Shown: one piece after another, positions 5,120 through 11,452 of the stretch | How the letters are laid out: each line of letters starts with the position of its first letter | Position numbering within the stretch: position 1 is the first letter of the stretch | Source: Escherichia phage slur05 | DNA: 43,900 nt | Sequence record: NC_028901.1 | Reading direction: 5' to 3' (one strand) | Made by a program: the position numbers and the translations under genes | The notes under the pieces: model-generated | What the model was told of the DNA's origin: nothing | The model's input: the letters and a program-made list of their open reading frames with translations, nothing else | The model's database searches: none

Positions 5120-6805
5120 TTATGCTTTAGTCAGTGCCTCGACCGCGACTTTCAAATCAGCTACGGCAGCTTTCAGTTCTGCAATCTCGGCCTTGTTCGC
5201 CTCGTCACGCGCTCTTAACGCTTTAATAGCTGCCAGGCAATCCGCGACAAGCGGGTTTAAGTCTAACGTCATCATCCCCGGCACTTCGTGGTCGTGCACA
5301 TATTCCCTGTCAACCGTTGCCGCTTGCTGTGCAATGATTCCGCGTCGCGTAGATCTCTCCGGTTCGTCAAACGTGTACCGGAACAACTTAAACTCAAGGC
5401 GGTTGATGTTATCCAGTGCCGCTTCCACATTTAAATTGCCCTTAATATCCTTCACACGGGCGTCAGACTTACCAGCATCTTGCACCCGCGACCATGTTTT
5501 CGTTGTGGAGGAGACTTGCGCGTTGCCGGAGTCGTTCCAACGATAGTAGAGCGCTGGCAGCGCGCCGACCATAACCTGTGCGACACGAGAGGGCGTGTAG
5601 GCAGATTGAAATCCTGCTCCGTTTACCGGTGCCCATGTAGGGGTGCTGATCGACTGCGAGAAAAAGCAAGCCTGCGTATTTGGGGGCGCGTATGAGTATT
5701 CAATCCCAAGTCCGTAGTCCCCCGGCTTCACCGCTTCGCACCAGTTCTGCAGCGCACCATTCTCTTTAGTTCTCCAGAAAAAACGGCTTTGACGTGCGGC
5801 GAACTGTACCGCGTAGTTTTCCTCAAACTTAACATGCAGACCCGCCGCCGAAGTACCCTCGATCGGTGATCCGAAGACGGTAGCGAGATAGGTGCTTCCG
5901 TCAACTTCGTTCCAACTTCCGCCAGGTGCGTTGCCGTTAATGCCATAATCCCCAACGCCGATTGCGTTGAGGGTCTGCCGTGCCGCTGATTTGTCAGTGA
6001 GGTCGGTTAGGTTGTTACTTACCTTAGCGTATTGAGACGGGTCAACCTCGTTTTTGAATTGTTCGGCCTCGTTCCTGTACCCCTGAGCGGCATCACGGGC
6101 GGCTTGCGCGTCCGTCTTCGCGGTGTTGGCCTGATCGCGAATAACTCCGGTATCCGTCTTAATTTGGTTGGTCTGGTCCTTGATGGCCTGCGTATCCGTC
6201 TTAATCTGGTTGGTCTGCGTCTTGATGGTATTGGTGGCGTCGTGGATAGCCTGTGTGTCCGTCTTAATCTGGTTGGTGTTGTTGTAGATGACCTGCGCGC
6301 CTTCCTTGAATCCTTTAGCTTCGTTCCTGGAATTCTGCGCGGCTGCTTCCGATGCGGCGGCTTGTTGCTGCAGGTCGCGCATTTCCACTGGGTCGATCTG
6401 TTTCATCAACTGCGACAGGTATCCCCATGACATACCCTGCATCACCTGCCCGTTCGGCAGCGTGACCGTGATTTCTTCAGCGTCGCCGAAGATTGCACGC
6501 CAGTTGTTTTCATCTGCAATCATCAAGCGCAATGCTTTTTGAGCCTGTACGGTAACGCCCATCGTTGCCAGTGACATGGTATCGCGCTTAACACCATCCC
6601 ACGCAAGGCCGGTTGCCGTTGGGCCGTCGAACGGCAACACCAGCGTGAGCGCGGTTGCGCTTTCAATGGACGCGATTGCCACGGTGTATGGGACTTGTCC
6701 TACCACCAGCGTCAAGAAGTCGCCAGCTTTAAACGCAGTAAACGTTGTGCCGACCCCTACTACAGCCTTGCTATTATTCGTTACAGATAGCGTACCCGCT
6801 GCCAT
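5120..6805 (-). CDS. Tail fiber protein
   Basis: 561 aa with Gly/Thr-rich N-terminus, tandem repeats TNQIKTDTQAI(K/H)DQ, C-terminal coiled coil; sits in the tail module with a strong terminator at 5089-5115. Confidence 0.65.
   Translation of the reverse strand: MAAGTLSVTNNSKAVVGVGTTFTAFKAGDFLTLVVGQVPYTVAIASIESATALTLVLPFDGPTATGLAWDGVKRDTMSLATMGVTVQAQKALRLMIADENNWRAIFGDAEEITVTLPNGQVMQGMSWGYLSQLMKQIDPVEMRDLQQQAAASEAAAQNSRNEAKGFKEGAQVIYNNTNQIKTDTQAIHDATNTIKTQTNQIKTDTQAIKDQTNQIKTDTGVIRDQANTAKTDAQAARDAAQGYRNEAEQFKNEVDPSQYAKVSNNLTDLTDKSAARQTLNAIGVGDYGINGNAPGGSWNEVDGSTYLATVFGSPIEGTSAAGLHVKFEENYAVQFAARQSRFFWRTKENGALQNWCEAVKPGDYGLGIEYSYAPPNTQACFFSQSISTPTWAPVNGAGFQSAYTPSRVAQVMVGALPALYYRWNDSGNAQVSSTTKTWSRVQDAGKSDARVKDIKGNLNVEAALDNINRLEFKLFRYTFDEPERSTRRGIIAQQAATVDREYVHDHEVPGMMTLDLNPLVADCLAAIKALRARDEANKAEIAELKAAVADLKVAVEALTKA
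6100..6300 (-). repeat. In-frame tandem repeats (~33 bp units) inside the tail fiber gene
   Basis: Repeated CCGTCTTAATCTGGTTGGTCTG-type units encoding TNQIKTDTQAIxDQ. Confidence 0.6.
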
Positions 6806-6826
6806 AGCTGAATCCTCTTAAATTGG

Positions 6827-6854
6827 TTGCAATCCTGGTTGAGCGGTGTAATAC
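6827..6854 (+). promoter_or_regulatory. Promoter-like element TTGCAA-16-TAATAC for the lipoprotein cassette
   Basis: ATTGGTTGCAA at 6822-6832 followed 16 bp later by TAATAC. Confidence 0.35.
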
Positions 6855-6885
6855 TAAAACTCAACCAAATATAGGGGATGATACC

Positions 6886-7107
6886 ATGAAAACTTTAATT
6901 ATGATTTGTGCGGTTCTTTTATCCGGTTGCGCCGTAGAACGCAACAACGGCGATTGCATTACGGTTGCGTACGGTAGCTGCATGTTGTGCTACGTTGATG
7001 GGCAAAAAGTCCCGGCAGGAGATGTGGACATGCGATTCACGGGGCTGTCTTCAGATAGCGACGGCAATTTCTCAGGCACAGTATCAGTTAAATCACGGGA
7101 GTGGTAA
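6886..7107 (+). CDS. Small lipoprotein (73 aa), Cor/Llp-like superinfection-exclusion candidate
   Basis: MKTLIMICAVLLSGC: signal peptide with lipobox LSGC; AGGGGA RBS; opposite strand to the flanking tail genes, with its own promoter-like element. Confidence 0.55.
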   Translation: MKTLIMICAVLLSGCAVERNNGDCITVAYGSCMLCYVDGQKVPAGDVDMRFTGLSSDSDGNFSGTVSVKSREW

Positions 7108-7109
7108 TA

Positions 7110-8075
7110 ATGGGCGCTGGAATACTTATCGACTATAACGACGGAAGACCGCGCATGGAGATCACCGCGGGACTTCGCGCGCCGTCATACTGCACCAGCT
7201 TTAACCAGCGGGCACAGTCCAATAAGACGTTAACCATTAACACCCCTCTTACGGCGGGGTCGCAGGTCGTCGTCGCTCTCACTCGCCCGGTAGAGGTGAT
7301 TGAGGTATTCGACCAGACACTGGTAATACCAGATCCGTTTTACGTTACGTCGGTTACTCGCAACGGTAATAGTGGTATCACCCTGCGCGGGGAGGATGCG
7401 TATGGCGCGTACTCTGGTTTACCACAATGGGCTGGCGTCATAATGGAAGTGCTGCCGGTTGGGTCGCGAAACGCAGGTTTACTGGTGGCTAACTCGACGG
7501 ACTTCACCGCCATATCCAACGTGTCTAAGCTAATGACCTGCCGATACGCACAGCGAGTACGCGTCAACGGTAGTATGGCCTTGCCCGTTAGCGGTGTCCC
7601 GTTCGCCCGCTGGGATGACGGCAACGTATCAGTAGGCTTCGATGGTGGCAGTATTATCGTCCGCAACGCGGCCTATGGTGGCATCGACGATGTGGCGGCT
7701 TCGGTGGACATGGACCTTGTCATATTCAACAATACACCACCCACGCCAGGGGCCGGGATCACTATGACAAATAACCAGAATCAGGTCACGTTCTCGACGG
7801 TGAACAAGCCGTTCGTATATGACCGCACGATTAACATCGGCACGGGCGACCAGAATATAGGAAACAGCCTGATCCAGCTTTCATACACCGGCGCGCTGAT
7901 TCAGAACAACGGGGGCTATAACCACGTCCGCATGAACGGAATACGCATGGCGGGTAATAATGTGCGCGTCGCTAAAAACCGCGTCATCGGCAACTACTCA
8001 CGGCAGCAATTCCAGATGCCAGGTAAAAATATTGCCGTACCCACCCCGCTACTCGTCATCCCGAATATGTATTGA
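7110..8075 (+). CDS. Hypothetical protein (321 aa) co-transcribed with the lipoprotein
   Basis: ATG 7110 with GGGAG RBS, 2 nt after the lipoprotein stop; Gly/Asn-rich, probably beta-rich; followed by hairpin 8077-8096. Confidence 0.45.
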   Translation: MGAGILIDYNDGRPRMEITAGLRAPSYCTSFNQRAQSNKTLTINTPLTAGSQVVVALTRPVEVIEVFDQTLVIPDPFYVTSVTRNGNSGITLRGEDAYGAYSGLPQWAGVIMEVLPVGSRNAGLLVANSTDFTAISNVSKLMTCRYAQRVRVNGSMALPVSGVPFARWDDGNVSVGFDGGSIIVRNAAYGGIDDVAASVDMDLVIFNNTPPTPGAGITMTNNQNQVTFSTVNKPFVYDRTINIGTGDQNIGNSLIQLSYTGALIQNNGGYNHVRMNGIRMAGNNVRVAKNRVIGNYSRQQFQMPGKNIAVPTPLLVIPNMY

Positions 8076-8100
8076 AAAGGGGCCGGATGGCCCCTTCGCA
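8074..8100. terminator. Bidirectional terminator-like hairpin between gene 7110-8075 and the J-like gene
   Basis: 8 bp stem AAGGGGCC/GGCCCCTT with 4 nt loop; T-rich flank on the minus strand. Confidence 0.5.
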
Positions 8101-8101
8101 T

Positions 8102-11100
8102 TTACCACGTCCCGACTTTCACCCTCCCCCCGCCAGGTAACGGCACGTTTACGCCTGTCTTGTCGATCGTCACGGTCCCACCAGAAAACCCGAAGTTACC
8201 CGATGTGGCGTACAGGTTGCCGCGGACCGTTACGTTGTTCAATTCCGCGTTACCCGATTTAGGCAGGTTCCACCCTGACGACCCCGCAACGAAGTTATTA
8301 GACCGCAGCGTGTCCGTGATCTGTGCGAAGTTAATGGACGCGTTCTTGATTCGTGCCGTGTCGATGTACACCTGTCCTCCGTCGACGATGAACGCGGACG
8401 AAAGCGACCCATTAGATGGGTGCATGATGTAGAACTGGTCGGCTTTGAACGCGATACGAGATTTAACCGCGCTGCCCGACGTTACAACGGAAAGCTGCAT
8501 ACCCGCATCATAGTAAGTACCGTTATACGTCACACCCGCCTTAAGGCTGTATGTGGCGCTACCACCGGAGTGGTTAAACGAGGACGTCATCTTCTGCTCG
8601 ATCGCGGCGGACTGCTGACCGAACTTAGCGGCAACAGTTTGTTGGTACTGGGCGAACGCTTGCTCGTGCGTGCTTTGCGCGGTCTGCAACGTGTGGATTG
8701 CCGCTTCCGCATCGTCAAGGCGAGTACCGATCAACGTTTCCAGTTGCGCTACCGCCTGGTGGGCATCTGCCGCCACGTTATACGCGACCGAGATTTCTGC
8801 ATAAATCCCCTTGTACTCGGCGCGGGCGTTAAACAATTGCTGTGCGTCGGTGAGCATAGCCTCATAAATGCCTTGCGGCATGGTGTCGATCGCTTCCTGG
8901 AAGCGTTTACCGTCCTCAGAAGTCAAGAACTCGTCGTCCAGCCCATTCATATACTCGTCAACATTGTCACTCACCTGCCCTTCAAACGGGTCCGACCAGT
9001 CCGACAGGTTGCCGATTTTATCCGCTACACGGGCGCGCAACTGCTGATAGATGCCGAACTCCAGCGACGTTTGCGCATACTCCGACCCCGGGTATGGGAC
9101 GTTGGTTAGGAATTTCCATTCCGTTTCACCCGTCTTGCGAACTTCAAGCTCGGTGTACGAAATATCCGTCGCGGCGTTATTGTGGTTCCACTTCCACAAA
9201 ATCTGGTGAAGGCCCGAAATCGCGTTGGTGATGATAGGCGCGTTAAGACCGCCGAGACGACCTTCCACCGGCGTGATGGCAGAAGACACCCACGGGGATG
9301 AAATCTCGCCCATACCGATCGCGCGGACGCGTGCCTGATAATTGCCTGAAAACACGTTAGGGATGTGCGCGCCGTTCGATGCCGTACGTGGGATGTTTAC
9401 CCAGTCGTTACCCCACTGGATTTCCATATTCTGCAAGCTGGTGCGTCGCCACTGGATTTCATACACCACGGCATCTTTCACCGGCGGGAATACAATATCA
9501 ACGTTGGTGATTAGCTGGCCTTGCGATGAAATCTGCGACGGGGTGATGGTCACGGATTCCGGCCCCTTCATTACACCGTCGGGCACTTGCGTAAAGATGC
9601 CTGGGTCAAGGCGAGCGCCATTATCAACGGCATCATATTTGCTATCGTTGTATTCGATCCCGCGCACTGAAAAAGTGCTGGTAGAGTCGTCATATTCCAG
9701 GTCGGTGATGCGGAACTTCTGCAACTGGATATCGTTGCCATCGACGCAAAACGGCTGATCAGGAATCGGGTCGGCGTCCAGTGCGGTTTTTAGCGTAACC
9801 TTGTTGCCGTTGACGCTGGCAATCTCGCGAGTCTCCACATTACCGCTATCGGTGCGTACCAGGAATTTATCACCTGGGCGGAACGTGATTTCGCTGTCCG
9901 TGTTAAGCACGGTACGCGTGCCAGGGTCCGACAACAGGCGACCGCCGCGTGTCTCGAAGCCGCCAGAAAAGTTTGTATCGGCGATCGCGACTACGCTACC
10001 CGGAATAAAGAAAAGTCCCTCCATGCCAACCTTAAAGCTAACTTGCTGGTCAAGCTGGTTGGAGATTAGCGCCCAGTGCCCGCGGCGTTGCGCTTCAGAT
10101 TCACGCGTACAGCCGATCGCCGTGATGTCCAGACGGTTAATCTTATGGCGGCGTACCAGTTCGACACGCTGCCCCGTAGCAATGGCATCTTCATAGTGGT
10201 TCTTCGGGTTGCCGTATGCTACCGCGAATGTGGAATATCGAGTTTTCTGGCTGCCGGACGCGTAGTCGAATCGACCATCAATGACCGAGGCGTTGGTGAT
10301 GGTGTGCGATACCGCTGCGACCGGCTGGTCACTGACGATATTCAACATCTGATTTCCCCACCAGGTCATACCGGCAAAGATAGCGGCTAAATCCTTAAGC
10401 ACGGTCCAGGCATCCGTCTGTGACTGAATGTACATATCATTCTTAAAGCGGATTTCTCGACCACCGTTGCCGTCGCTGACCAACTGATCGCAGCGCTGCG
10501 CAATCTGGTAGAGCGCGTATCGGTTTAGCATTTGCGGTTTGATACGCCGACCGAGGCCGAAGCGCTCAGTAATACAAATATCGTACCAGTGCCACGCAGG
10601 GTTATCCGTCCATGCGCGTTTAAACGTGCCGTCCCAGTCCCCGGAATAGGTATGATTGATCGGGTCGTAGTTGTTCGGTATTAGAACTTTGCGACCTTTG
10701 CACTTAATGGACACGCGCGGGATGTTCTGGAACGCTTTGGCGTCGAACTCCACAAACAACAGCGCGGTTAGCGGGTAACGCAGGCGGGCGTCAATAATCT
10801 CAGTGATGGACTGCACCCGGATATCATTAACCACTTTCGCCGATGTGGAGTCTGCCGTTATGCGGTGCACCTCCACGCGCCAGCCGGTGTTAACGTTCGG
10901 AGGTAATTCGATGCGGTGGTCGCGCTCATATAGCGACATTGTTTTACCAACGGCGGCGAATCTGAACTCACGCGGGTCGGCGTTATCCGTATACACAACT
11001 ATCTTATAGTCGATGCGCCCGCCCACCAGGTCGCCGTTGTCTTCGTTGGTGTACAGGGCCGGAATGCCGATTCGAATGCGCACGGCGTCAAGACTGGTGT

Positions 11101-11452
11101 CGTTAATCTGGCGCACCCACGGCGTGCCGTTTTCCAGTTTTACGCCTACGGATTGCTCACTTTCCACCGCTGAAAATCCGTGGATCACGTCCTGGTGCTG
11201 TGTGCCTGGGCGGAACTCCACGCGCGCGCCGGGGAAGTTTTCCGACAGGTCGGCGTTCTGGATCGGCGTGCCGTCCAGATATACACGCTGCCGTAATTCG
11301 CTGTCGCTGGTAATACTTTCGAATTCCCCTTCCCCTAGCGCAAGCAAGATGCGAATTTTAGCCAGGGAATGCAGGCTATCCGGCGTTTCCTGCGGGGTGT
11401 GCTGTTTGCCGCCGCCGCCTTTATGCCCAGTGACGTCGTAGATAATCGTCAT
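8102..11452 (-). CDS. Tail tip/central fiber protein (lambda J-like)
   Basis: 1116 aa; N-terminus (GGGGKQHTPQETPDSLHSLAKIRILLALGEGE) resembles the lambda J N-terminus; follows the I-like gene. Confidence 0.75.
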   Translation of the reverse strand: MTIIYDVTGHKGGGGKQHTPQETPDSLHSLAKIRILLALGEGEFESITSDSELRQRVYLDGTPIQNADLSENFPGARVEFRPGTQHQDVIHGFSAVESEQSVGVKLENGTPWVRQINDTSLDAVRIRIGIPALYTNEDNGDLVGGRIDYKIVVYTDNADPREFRFAAVGKTMSLYERDHRIELPPNVNTGWRVEVHRITADSTSAKVVNDIRVQSITEIIDARLRYPLTALLFVEFDAKAFQNIPRVSIKCKGRKVLIPNNYDPINHTYSGDWDGTFKRAWTDNPAWHWYDICITERFGLGRRIKPQMLNRYALYQIAQRCDQLVSDGNGGREIRFKNDMYIQSQTDAWTVLKDLAAIFAGMTWWGNQMLNIVSDQPVAAVSHTITNASVIDGRFDYASGSQKTRYSTFAVAYGNPKNHYEDAIATGQRVELVRRHKINRLDITAIGCTRESEAQRRGHWALISNQLDQQVSFKVGMEGLFFIPGSVVAIADTNFSGGFETRGGRLLSDPGTRTVLNTDSEITFRPGDKFLVRTDSGNVETREIASVNGNKVTLKTALDADPIPDQPFCVDGNDIQLQKFRITDLEYDDSTSTFSVRGIEYNDSKYDAVDNGARLDPGIFTQVPDGVMKGPESVTITPSQISSQGQLITNVDIVFPPVKDAVVYEIQWRRTSLQNMEIQWGNDWVNIPRTASNGAHIPNVFSGNYQARVRAIGMGEISSPWVSSAITPVEGRLGGLNAPIITNAISGLHQILWKWNHNNAATDISYTELEVRKTGETEWKFLTNVPYPGSEYAQTSLEFGIYQQLRARVADKIGNLSDWSDPFEGQVSDNVDEYMNGLDDEFLTSEDGKRFQEAIDTMPQGIYEAMLTDAQQLFNARAEYKGIYAEISVAYNVAADAHQAVAQLETLIGTRLDDAEAAIHTLQTAQSTHEQAFAQYQQTVAAKFGQQSAAIEQKMTSSFNHSGGSATYSLKAGVTYNGTYYDAGMQLSVVTSGSAVKSRIAFKADQFYIMHPSNGSLSSAFIVDGGQVYIDTARIKNASINFAQITDTLRSNNFVAGSSGWNLPKSGNAELNNVTVRGNLYATSGNFGFSGGTVTIDKTGVNVPLPGGGRVKVGTW

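Follow-up and report, generated by a model that had tools for sequence, protein, structure and literature searches.

An Oekolampad-type host-recognition locus in Escherichia phage slur05: a predicted LptD-specific receptor-binding protein and a probable exclusion lipoprotein

The tail module of Escherichia phage slur05 contains two coupled genes that run against the genes around them. In our reading, which we hold with a probability of roughly 0.9, they form the host-recognition locus of Dhillonvirus in its Oekolampad-type, LptD-specific allele and encode a receptor-binding protein (RBP) together with an exclusion lipoprotein. The locus type is already known and is ordinary for Dhillonvirus coliphages. 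Since both the host-range module and the targeting of LptD have been published, the slur05 stretch is another near-identical example and brings no new biology.

Loci of this kind, with an RBP encoded downstream of gpJ and a cognate exclusion protein, were described by Maffei et al.; their alleles agree with the receptor in every case and spread by horizontal transfer, and LptD was identified by experiment as the receptor of Bas18 (PMC8594841). A 2026 preprint confirms the logic of the locus as well as LptD for Bas18, and reports receptor-specific C-terminal domains of GpJ (10.64898/2026.04.02.716166).

The window, that is the whole stretch of 43,900 nucleotides that was analysed (NC_028901.1), was recognized by megablast against phage genomes as the genome of a Dhillonvirus. 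The locus is 100% identical to that of Escherichia phage slur06, identity to Escherichia phage Oekolampad (Bas18) is 96% over the locus, and nearly all of about 150 further matches belong to the genus Dhillonvirus. Both the listing of open reading frames and the raw sequence bear out the earlier description of a two-gene plus-strand unit between a tail fibre gene and a J-like gene on the minus strand. To its left, divergent from it across 80 bp, starts the gene of the lateral tail fibre (5120-6805, minus strand, 561 aa), which matches PF13884 and phrog_1980, carries an S74 intramolecular chaperone domain at its C-terminus and bears the lateral tail fibre label in Oekolampad. To its right, the gene encoding the J-like protein of the central tail fibre or tail tip (8102-11452, minus strand, 1116 aa; PF24801, PF13550, PF09327; phrog_31) converges on the unit and ends 26 bp from it. 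In Oekolampad the same four genes are labelled as a lateral tail fibre, two hypothetical proteins and a J-like tail tip protein. The two open reading frames of the unit are genes and not chance ORFs, as indicated by their scores against PF24052 (72 bits) and PF20051 (404 bits) and by a PDB match with an E-value of 1.6e-209. NCBIfam and PADLOC searches gave no useful result.

The closest named system is the Oekolampad locus itself. It comes from the same genus, and its genes agree in order, orientation and spacing; identity is 98% for the RBP and 99% for the lipoprotein, and both the 3′ hairpin and the intergenic region are identical to those of the slur05 stretch. The differences amount to six substitutions in the RBP, R35C in the lipoprotein, and a J protein whose last 62 residues are 84% identical and which is without a 32-aa coiled-coil unit in slur05.

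The second gene of the unit, which we assign to the RBP (DUF6453; 7110-8075, plus strand, 321 aa), begins with ATG 2 nt past the TAA stop of the lipoprotein gene and has its own GGGAG upstream. Its product is rich in glycine (10.3%) and asparagine (9.7%), so that the tightly coupled, Gly/Asn-rich partner of the earlier note is present as described. That note could name no counterpart for it, and here the picture changes: counterparts exist in Rtp44 and RBPOeko, and the family is Pfam DUF6453, for which the score given above compares with a cutoff of 25. The protein also matches PHROG 1265. A single distinct PDB sequence was matched, the chain that is named "tail fiber protein" in entries 9RPT, 9RPW and 9RQI, and 315 of the 321 residues are identical to Oekolampad bas18_0025 (RBPOeko), which is chain C of 9RPT. 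Neither a signal peptide nor a transmembrane segment was found in the protein.

The three entries are cryo-EM structures of the Oekolampad RBP bound to LptDE, the lipopolysaccharide translocon (PMC12685063). RBPOeko was obtained in soluble form on purification and attaches to LptDE at its extracellular face, and point mutants of LptD lose both RBPOeko binding and infection (PMC12685063). Changes in LptD that block Oekolampad include the EL11 deletion Δ(R657-Y678), Δ(L394-N397)::Y, D352Y and Y671N. Given such close homology to solved structures, the fold and LptD binding should carry over to the slur05 protein, which we predict to be an RBP that binds LptD and sits at the tip of the central tail fibre. 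Of the two roles that had been offered for it, receptor binding or exclusion, it is the receptor-binding one that stood, on 98% identity to the LptDE-bound RBPOeko.

We consider it quite improbable that the RBP recognizes a different receptor, either in place of LptD or alongside it. Six positions do differ from RBPOeko (E95D, S139A, Q148K, A188S, A215T and G246S), the J terminus is only 84% identical to that of Oekolampad over its last 62 residues, and Bas01 has a dual receptor, NupG and LptD, through domains of J (10.64898/2026.04.02.716166). However, the six changes are conservative in a protein that is otherwise the same, the groups studying Bas84 and Bas85 still predict LptD specificity for them even though their RBPs are 88-92% identical, and the J protein here is without a C-terminal extension. 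With the RBP read as LptD-specific, the locus yields a confident prediction of LptD as the receptor of slur06-like phages.

The first gene of the unit (6886-7107, plus strand) encodes the predicted superinfection-exclusion lipoprotein of 73 aa and is preceded by an AGGGG Shine-Dalgarno sequence 8 nt upstream of its start. The protein begins with MKTLIMICAVLLSGC and contains the lipobox LSGC. Its signal peptide is encoded at 6886-6927, and the codon of Cys15, the residue expected to be lipidated, lies at 6928-6930. The lipobox context is MKTLIMICAVLLSG followed by C-A-V, which places alanine at position +2. A residue other than aspartate at this position directs a lipoprotein to the outer membrane, so that outer-membrane sorting is expected. 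The open reading frame, the signal peptide and the Pfam match all agree with the lipoprotein proposed earlier.

The match to PF24052 (Phage_lipoprotein; cutoff 27, E 4.1e-20) extends over residues 3-73; Rtp45 itself scores 128 bits against the same profile. The protein also matches phrog_4281 (E 1.4e-32), is identical to Oekolampad bas18_0026 (SEOeko) at 72 of 73 residues, and finds Rtp45 (PDB 9RPS chain D) in a PDB sequence search with E 8.8e-8. Identity to Rtp45 is about 35-40% (39% in the mature part), and Cys24 and Cys32 align with Cys30 and Cys38, which form a disulfide in Rtp45. By homology, then, the 73-aa protein is a member of the Rtp45/PF24052 family.

In entry 9RPS, Rtp45 sits on LptDE at the periplasmic outer-membrane interface of LptD, between LptE and LptM (PMC12685063). 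Its hairpin enters the lumen of LptD and shifts extracellular loop 4 by up to 20 Å, which is incompatible with RBP binding; the mechanism is steric displacement of the loop and not long-range allostery (PMC12685063). From its 99% identity to SEOeko and its 35-40% identity to Rtp45 we infer an exclusion role for the slur05 lipoprotein, which very probably blocks LptD from inside and would in this way stop further phage attachment. The suggestion of a receptor-blocking exclusion factor is thus supported by both homologies and by the Rtp45-LptDE structure.

The kinship with Cor and Llp that was suggested alongside it did not hold. The family is of the Rtp45 type, and the blocked receptor would be LptD and not FhuA. 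The profile of Cor (phrog_1119) matched with E 0.0015 and over residues 1-30 only, which is the signal peptide. As to Llp, no chain of it occurs among the PDB sequence matches up to E = 10, and the protein has no Pfam match besides PF24052. What is shared with Cor (of phi80, N15, T1 and the FhuA-type Dhillonvirus allele) and with Llp (of T5) is the idea of a small outer-membrane lipoprotein whose gene adjoins that of the RBP and which acts from the periplasmic side to block the receptor. The Cor-like gene of Dhillonvirus even has the same position, strand, promoter region and signal peptide as the 73-aa gene, but the mature sequence is unrelated and the target is LptD rather than FhuA.

A lysis function, as a unimolecular or outer-membrane spanin, is highly improbable for this lipoprotein. 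It is a small outer-membrane lipoprotein, and 'u-spanin' is the label given to its homologue in the T1-like phage Chapo, but the N-terminal signal peptide is its sole hydrophobic stretch, no hydrophobic segment and hence no C-terminal transmembrane segment follows it, and the adjacent gene encodes a soluble RBP and not an i-spanin partner. Moreover, the gene belongs to a host-recognition locus, is exchanged together with the RBP allele, and has a homologue in Rtp45, whose structure on LptDE was solved.

To compare alleles, we used KarlBarth, PaulFeyerabend and UDS3lw, three Dhillonviruses with a Cor-like lipoprotein at the locus. We take these to be FhuA-type, a label that comes from the Cor annotation and from Maffei et al. 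DNA homology to them covers the tail fibre gene and the intergenic region, breaks off at 6929-6934, at the lipobox cysteine codon, and sets in again at 8290, where 62 codons of J remain to its end. The signal peptide does not differ from that of the FhuA-type lipoproteins, the mature lipoproteins are unrelated and unalignable, and the J C-termini diverge from the FhuA-type ends over the last ~60 residues. These break points delimit a swappable module, which begins at the codon of the lipobox cysteine, extends into J as far as its last ~62 codons, and comprises the mature lipoprotein, the RBP and the tip of J. Within the Oekolampad-type allele, the mature lipoprotein is 95-98% conserved versus 88-98% for the RBP. 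The T1-like Tunavirus Chapo carries a copy that is 78%/68% identical, which shows transfer of the locus across families.

The allele-specific C-terminal segment of J (8102-8290, minus strand, ~62 codons) travels with the DUF6453 RBP. A motif in it, RGxLYAxxGxFxFxG...GGRVxVGxW, is common to DUF6453-carrying phages of different families (the slur05 stretch, Oekolampad, Rtp, ACG-M12, Chapo, TheodorHerzl, Salmonella SPN3UB and Klebsiella Solomon) and absent from the FhuA-type ends, and podovirus ECBP2 has only a reduced form of it. This co-variation of the J C-terminus with the RBP supports, without proving, docking of the RBP on J, and makes the segment its probable docking site. A match over the N-terminal 34 residues in Citrobacter phage HCF1 was considered as evidence for a J-docking adaptor and rejected, the locus there being a decayed or misassembled remnant.

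Rtp, ACG-M12, Chapo, TheodorHerzl and six other Dhillonviruses likewise have a lipoprotein gene followed by a DUF6453 gene, tightly coupled to each other and convergent on J. Of the locus genes in the FhuA-type allele, just the one for the lipoprotein is found on the plus strand, and the other two (99 and 223 aa) run with J. The opposite strand is thus a property of the exclusion gene slot, behind which the LptD-type RBP gene sits. In SPN3UB, Solomon and ECBP2 there is no lipoprotein partner within 4 kb, and the DUF6453 gene directly follows J on the same strand.

That the 321-aa protein is instead a host-membrane 'moron', which aids exclusion by the lipoprotein and is not part of the virion, would fit the label of PHROG 1265 ('membrane protein; moron, auxiliary metabolic gene and host takeover'), repeated in RefSeq, and its co-transcription with the lipoprotein gene against the direction of the tail genes, but is hardly credible for a protein with no signal peptide or transmembrane segment, whose 98% identical relative is soluble and binds LptDE from the extracellular side, and whose homologues stand directly after J in phages that have no lipoprotein. 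As an RBP, the protein is expected in the virion as a structural component. The earlier note mistakenly counted a place in the virion among the grounds for giving up the exclusion idea; it is no argument against exclusion by the lipoprotein.

Rtp (Drexlerviridae) offers a more distant version of the same arrangement. Its rtp45/rtp44 pair shares both Pfam families (PF24052 and PF20051), with the lipoprotein first and the genes coupled, and it converges in the same way on a J homologue with a related C-terminus. In contrast, its RBP is only 35% and its mature lipoprotein 39% identical, and both the signal peptide and the neighbouring genes differ.

While the core of the cassette was found as described earlier, its regulatory details were confirmed only in part: the downstream hairpin held up, the promoter is weak, and the upstream hairpin did not hold up. 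A candidate sigma-70 promoter can be read in the sequence at 6827-6855 (plus strand), with TTGCAA at 6827-6832, a 17-nt spacer that ends in TGT at 6847-6849, and AATACT at 6850-6855. The hexamers match at 8 of 12 positions, and there is an extended -10 TG. Use of this promoter would put the transcription start at about 6862. Across five Dhillonviruses, three of them with a different receptor allele, identity in the 80-bp intergenic region is ~95%, and this conservation across receptor alleles counts in favour of a promoter; among the few positions of the region that vary is the base that follows the TG. Against it, the candidate falls below the threshold of a consensus promoter/terminator scan and is left uncalled, and promoter-like motifs are not enriched in the window (4 matches versus 3.0 expected from shuffles).

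The upstream inverted repeat (8 bp, 6836-6843/6860-6867, with a 16-nt loop) overlaps the putative promoter. On folding, it is no more stable than shuffled sequences (z -1.1), and KarlBarth has an uncompensated change within it. A longer, imperfect inverted repeat of 18 nt (6812-6829/6862-6879) was also considered and set aside, as it merely pairs the two divergent Shine-Dalgarno regions. The GC-rich hairpin at the other end (8077-8096, 8 perfect bp with a 4-nt loop) folds at -18.6/-18.9 kcal/mol, with z -3.0 on the plus strand and -3.35 on the minus strand relative to shuffles. Analogous GC hairpins are present in Rtp, ACG-M12, KarlBarth and Solomon, and the counterpart in WFI and Chapo carries a terminator label. 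The T-run is too short, so that the hairpin fails the terminator rule of the scan on either strand. Lying between the convergent RBP and J genes, it is likely a bidirectional transcription stop.

Put together, these elements suggest how the locus may work. The cassette is probably transcribed from its own promoter in the divergent intergenic region, and transcription would end at the hairpin shared with the convergent J gene; the lipoprotein and RBP genes are translationally coupled. The RBP would assemble non-covalently on the J-like tail-tip protein, at its C-terminal ~60 residues, and, placed at the tail tip, bind LptD. The prolipoprotein, lipidated at Cys15, would be sorted to the inner leaflet of the outer membrane, where it may bind LptD from the periplasm, push extracellular loop 4 outward and block the open state. 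In this way later RBPs would be kept off LptD, whether they belong to a superinfecting phage or to progeny meeting cell debris. Promoter use, the timing of expression and the docking of the RBP on the J C-terminus are points that we infer.

The assignment corrects several labels, since the 321-aa protein should be called an RBP and not a 'membrane protein / moron', and the 73-aa protein an exclusion lipoprotein and not 'hypothetical' or 'u-spanin'. The earlier inference, drawn from the sequence alone, was a good one. The locus represents a type of small, exchangeable host-range module that has been put forward for phage engineering, and LptD as a target is essential and conserved.

An additional effect, which we regard as unlikely, would be that the Oekolampad-type lipoprotein, by wedging into LptD from the periplasm, also shuts down or re-gates the export of lipopolysaccharide. 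If it did, an essential antibiotic target would have a natural inhibitor in this protein, and a block of export could explain why expression of SEOeko in E. coli failed (PMC12685063). Residue 35 is cysteine in the lipoprotein of the slur05 stretch and arginine in six relatives, and in such a case R35C of slur06 would provide a natural allele for comparison.

Compared with the Dhillonviruses that encode a Cor-like lipoprotein, the exchanged segment begins inside the lipoprotein gene, where the lipobox cysteine is encoded (window 6929-6934), and ends at 8290, 62 codons short of the end of the J-like gene. The comparison was made with the loci of KarlBarth, PaulFeyerabend and UDS3lw (L007 1973-3187, L008 2052-3265 and L009 2082-3297), which we call FhuA-type on the basis of their Cor annotation. 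Both alleles have the promoter region and the signal peptide in common, and it is the mature part of the lipoprotein that differs and has been swapped. The layout of the genes differs as well. In the three FhuA-type loci the strand opposite to J holds the Cor-like lipoprotein gene only, whereas in the LptD-type allele that gene is followed by the RBP gene. The remaining two genes of the FhuA-type locus run in the same direction as J, and their products, of 99 aa and 223 aa, have no match in Pfam.

The locus of another Dhillonvirus, TheodorHerzl (Bas14; lipoprotein locus L017 2271-2501), carries the Rtp-type LptD allele, with an RBP that is 33% identical to that of the window. Its signal peptide looks like a hybrid, starting with MKTLI like those of other Dhillonviruses and continuing in an Rtp-like manner, which suggests a recombination junction within the signal-peptide coding region of the lipoprotein gene.

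Citrobacter phage HCF1 (L018 2272-2620; UNVERIFIED_ASMBLY) has a lipoprotein/DUF6453 locus that seems to be either decayed or wrongly assembled. Its PF24052-like lipoprotein appears to be out of frame beyond about 40 residues, and only 39 codons of the DUF6453 gene are left, followed by a longer J gene.

DUF6453 genes are also found without an adjoining lipoprotein gene. In the temperate Salmonella phage SPN3UB (L004 4001-4960), the Klebsiella Webervirus Solomon (L005 4001-4957) and the podovirus ECBP2 (L006 3971-4963), they lie directly after J and are co-directional with it. In such podoviruses, the Gordonclarkvirinae (phiEco32-like), where the DUF6453 match scores 93 bits, the gene comes after that of a 336-aa protein with a Phage_Tail_Tip domain.

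The database labels of both proteins are misleading. In the lipoprotein-RBP locus of the T1-like Tunavirus Chapo (L016 2268-3466), the homologue of the lipoprotein is annotated as a u-spanin. For the RBP the label is "membrane protein / moron" (PHROG 1265; RefSeq records of EK99P-1, SO-1 and Bas84/85), even though it has no transmembrane segment and has been solved as a soluble RBP.

In the lipoprotein of the window, codon 35 (TGC, 6988-6990) specifies Cys, where Arg is found in six other lipoproteins of the Oekolampad type. The mature protein thereby has a third non-lipidated cysteine, an odd number; the difference could be a true variant or a sequencing error.

The J proteins of Oekolampad and KarlBarth contain a coiled-coil repeat unit of 32 residues (FSEQEAAIQSVQTATADVAGALAEYKTQVAAQ) that is missing from the J-like protein of the window, at about 8594-8625. 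Its absence has the appearance of a deletion between two direct repeats, VAAKF and VAAQF.

The lateral tail fibre (5120-6805, minus strand) has a coiled-coil shaft with a run of short TNQIKTDTQAI-like repeats (TRF: 6155-6223, period 21 nt, 3.3 copies) and a C-terminal S74 intramolecular chaperone domain. Plus-strand genes lie on either side of its gene, which must therefore have a promoter of its own or depend on read-through of the hairpin at 8077-8096.
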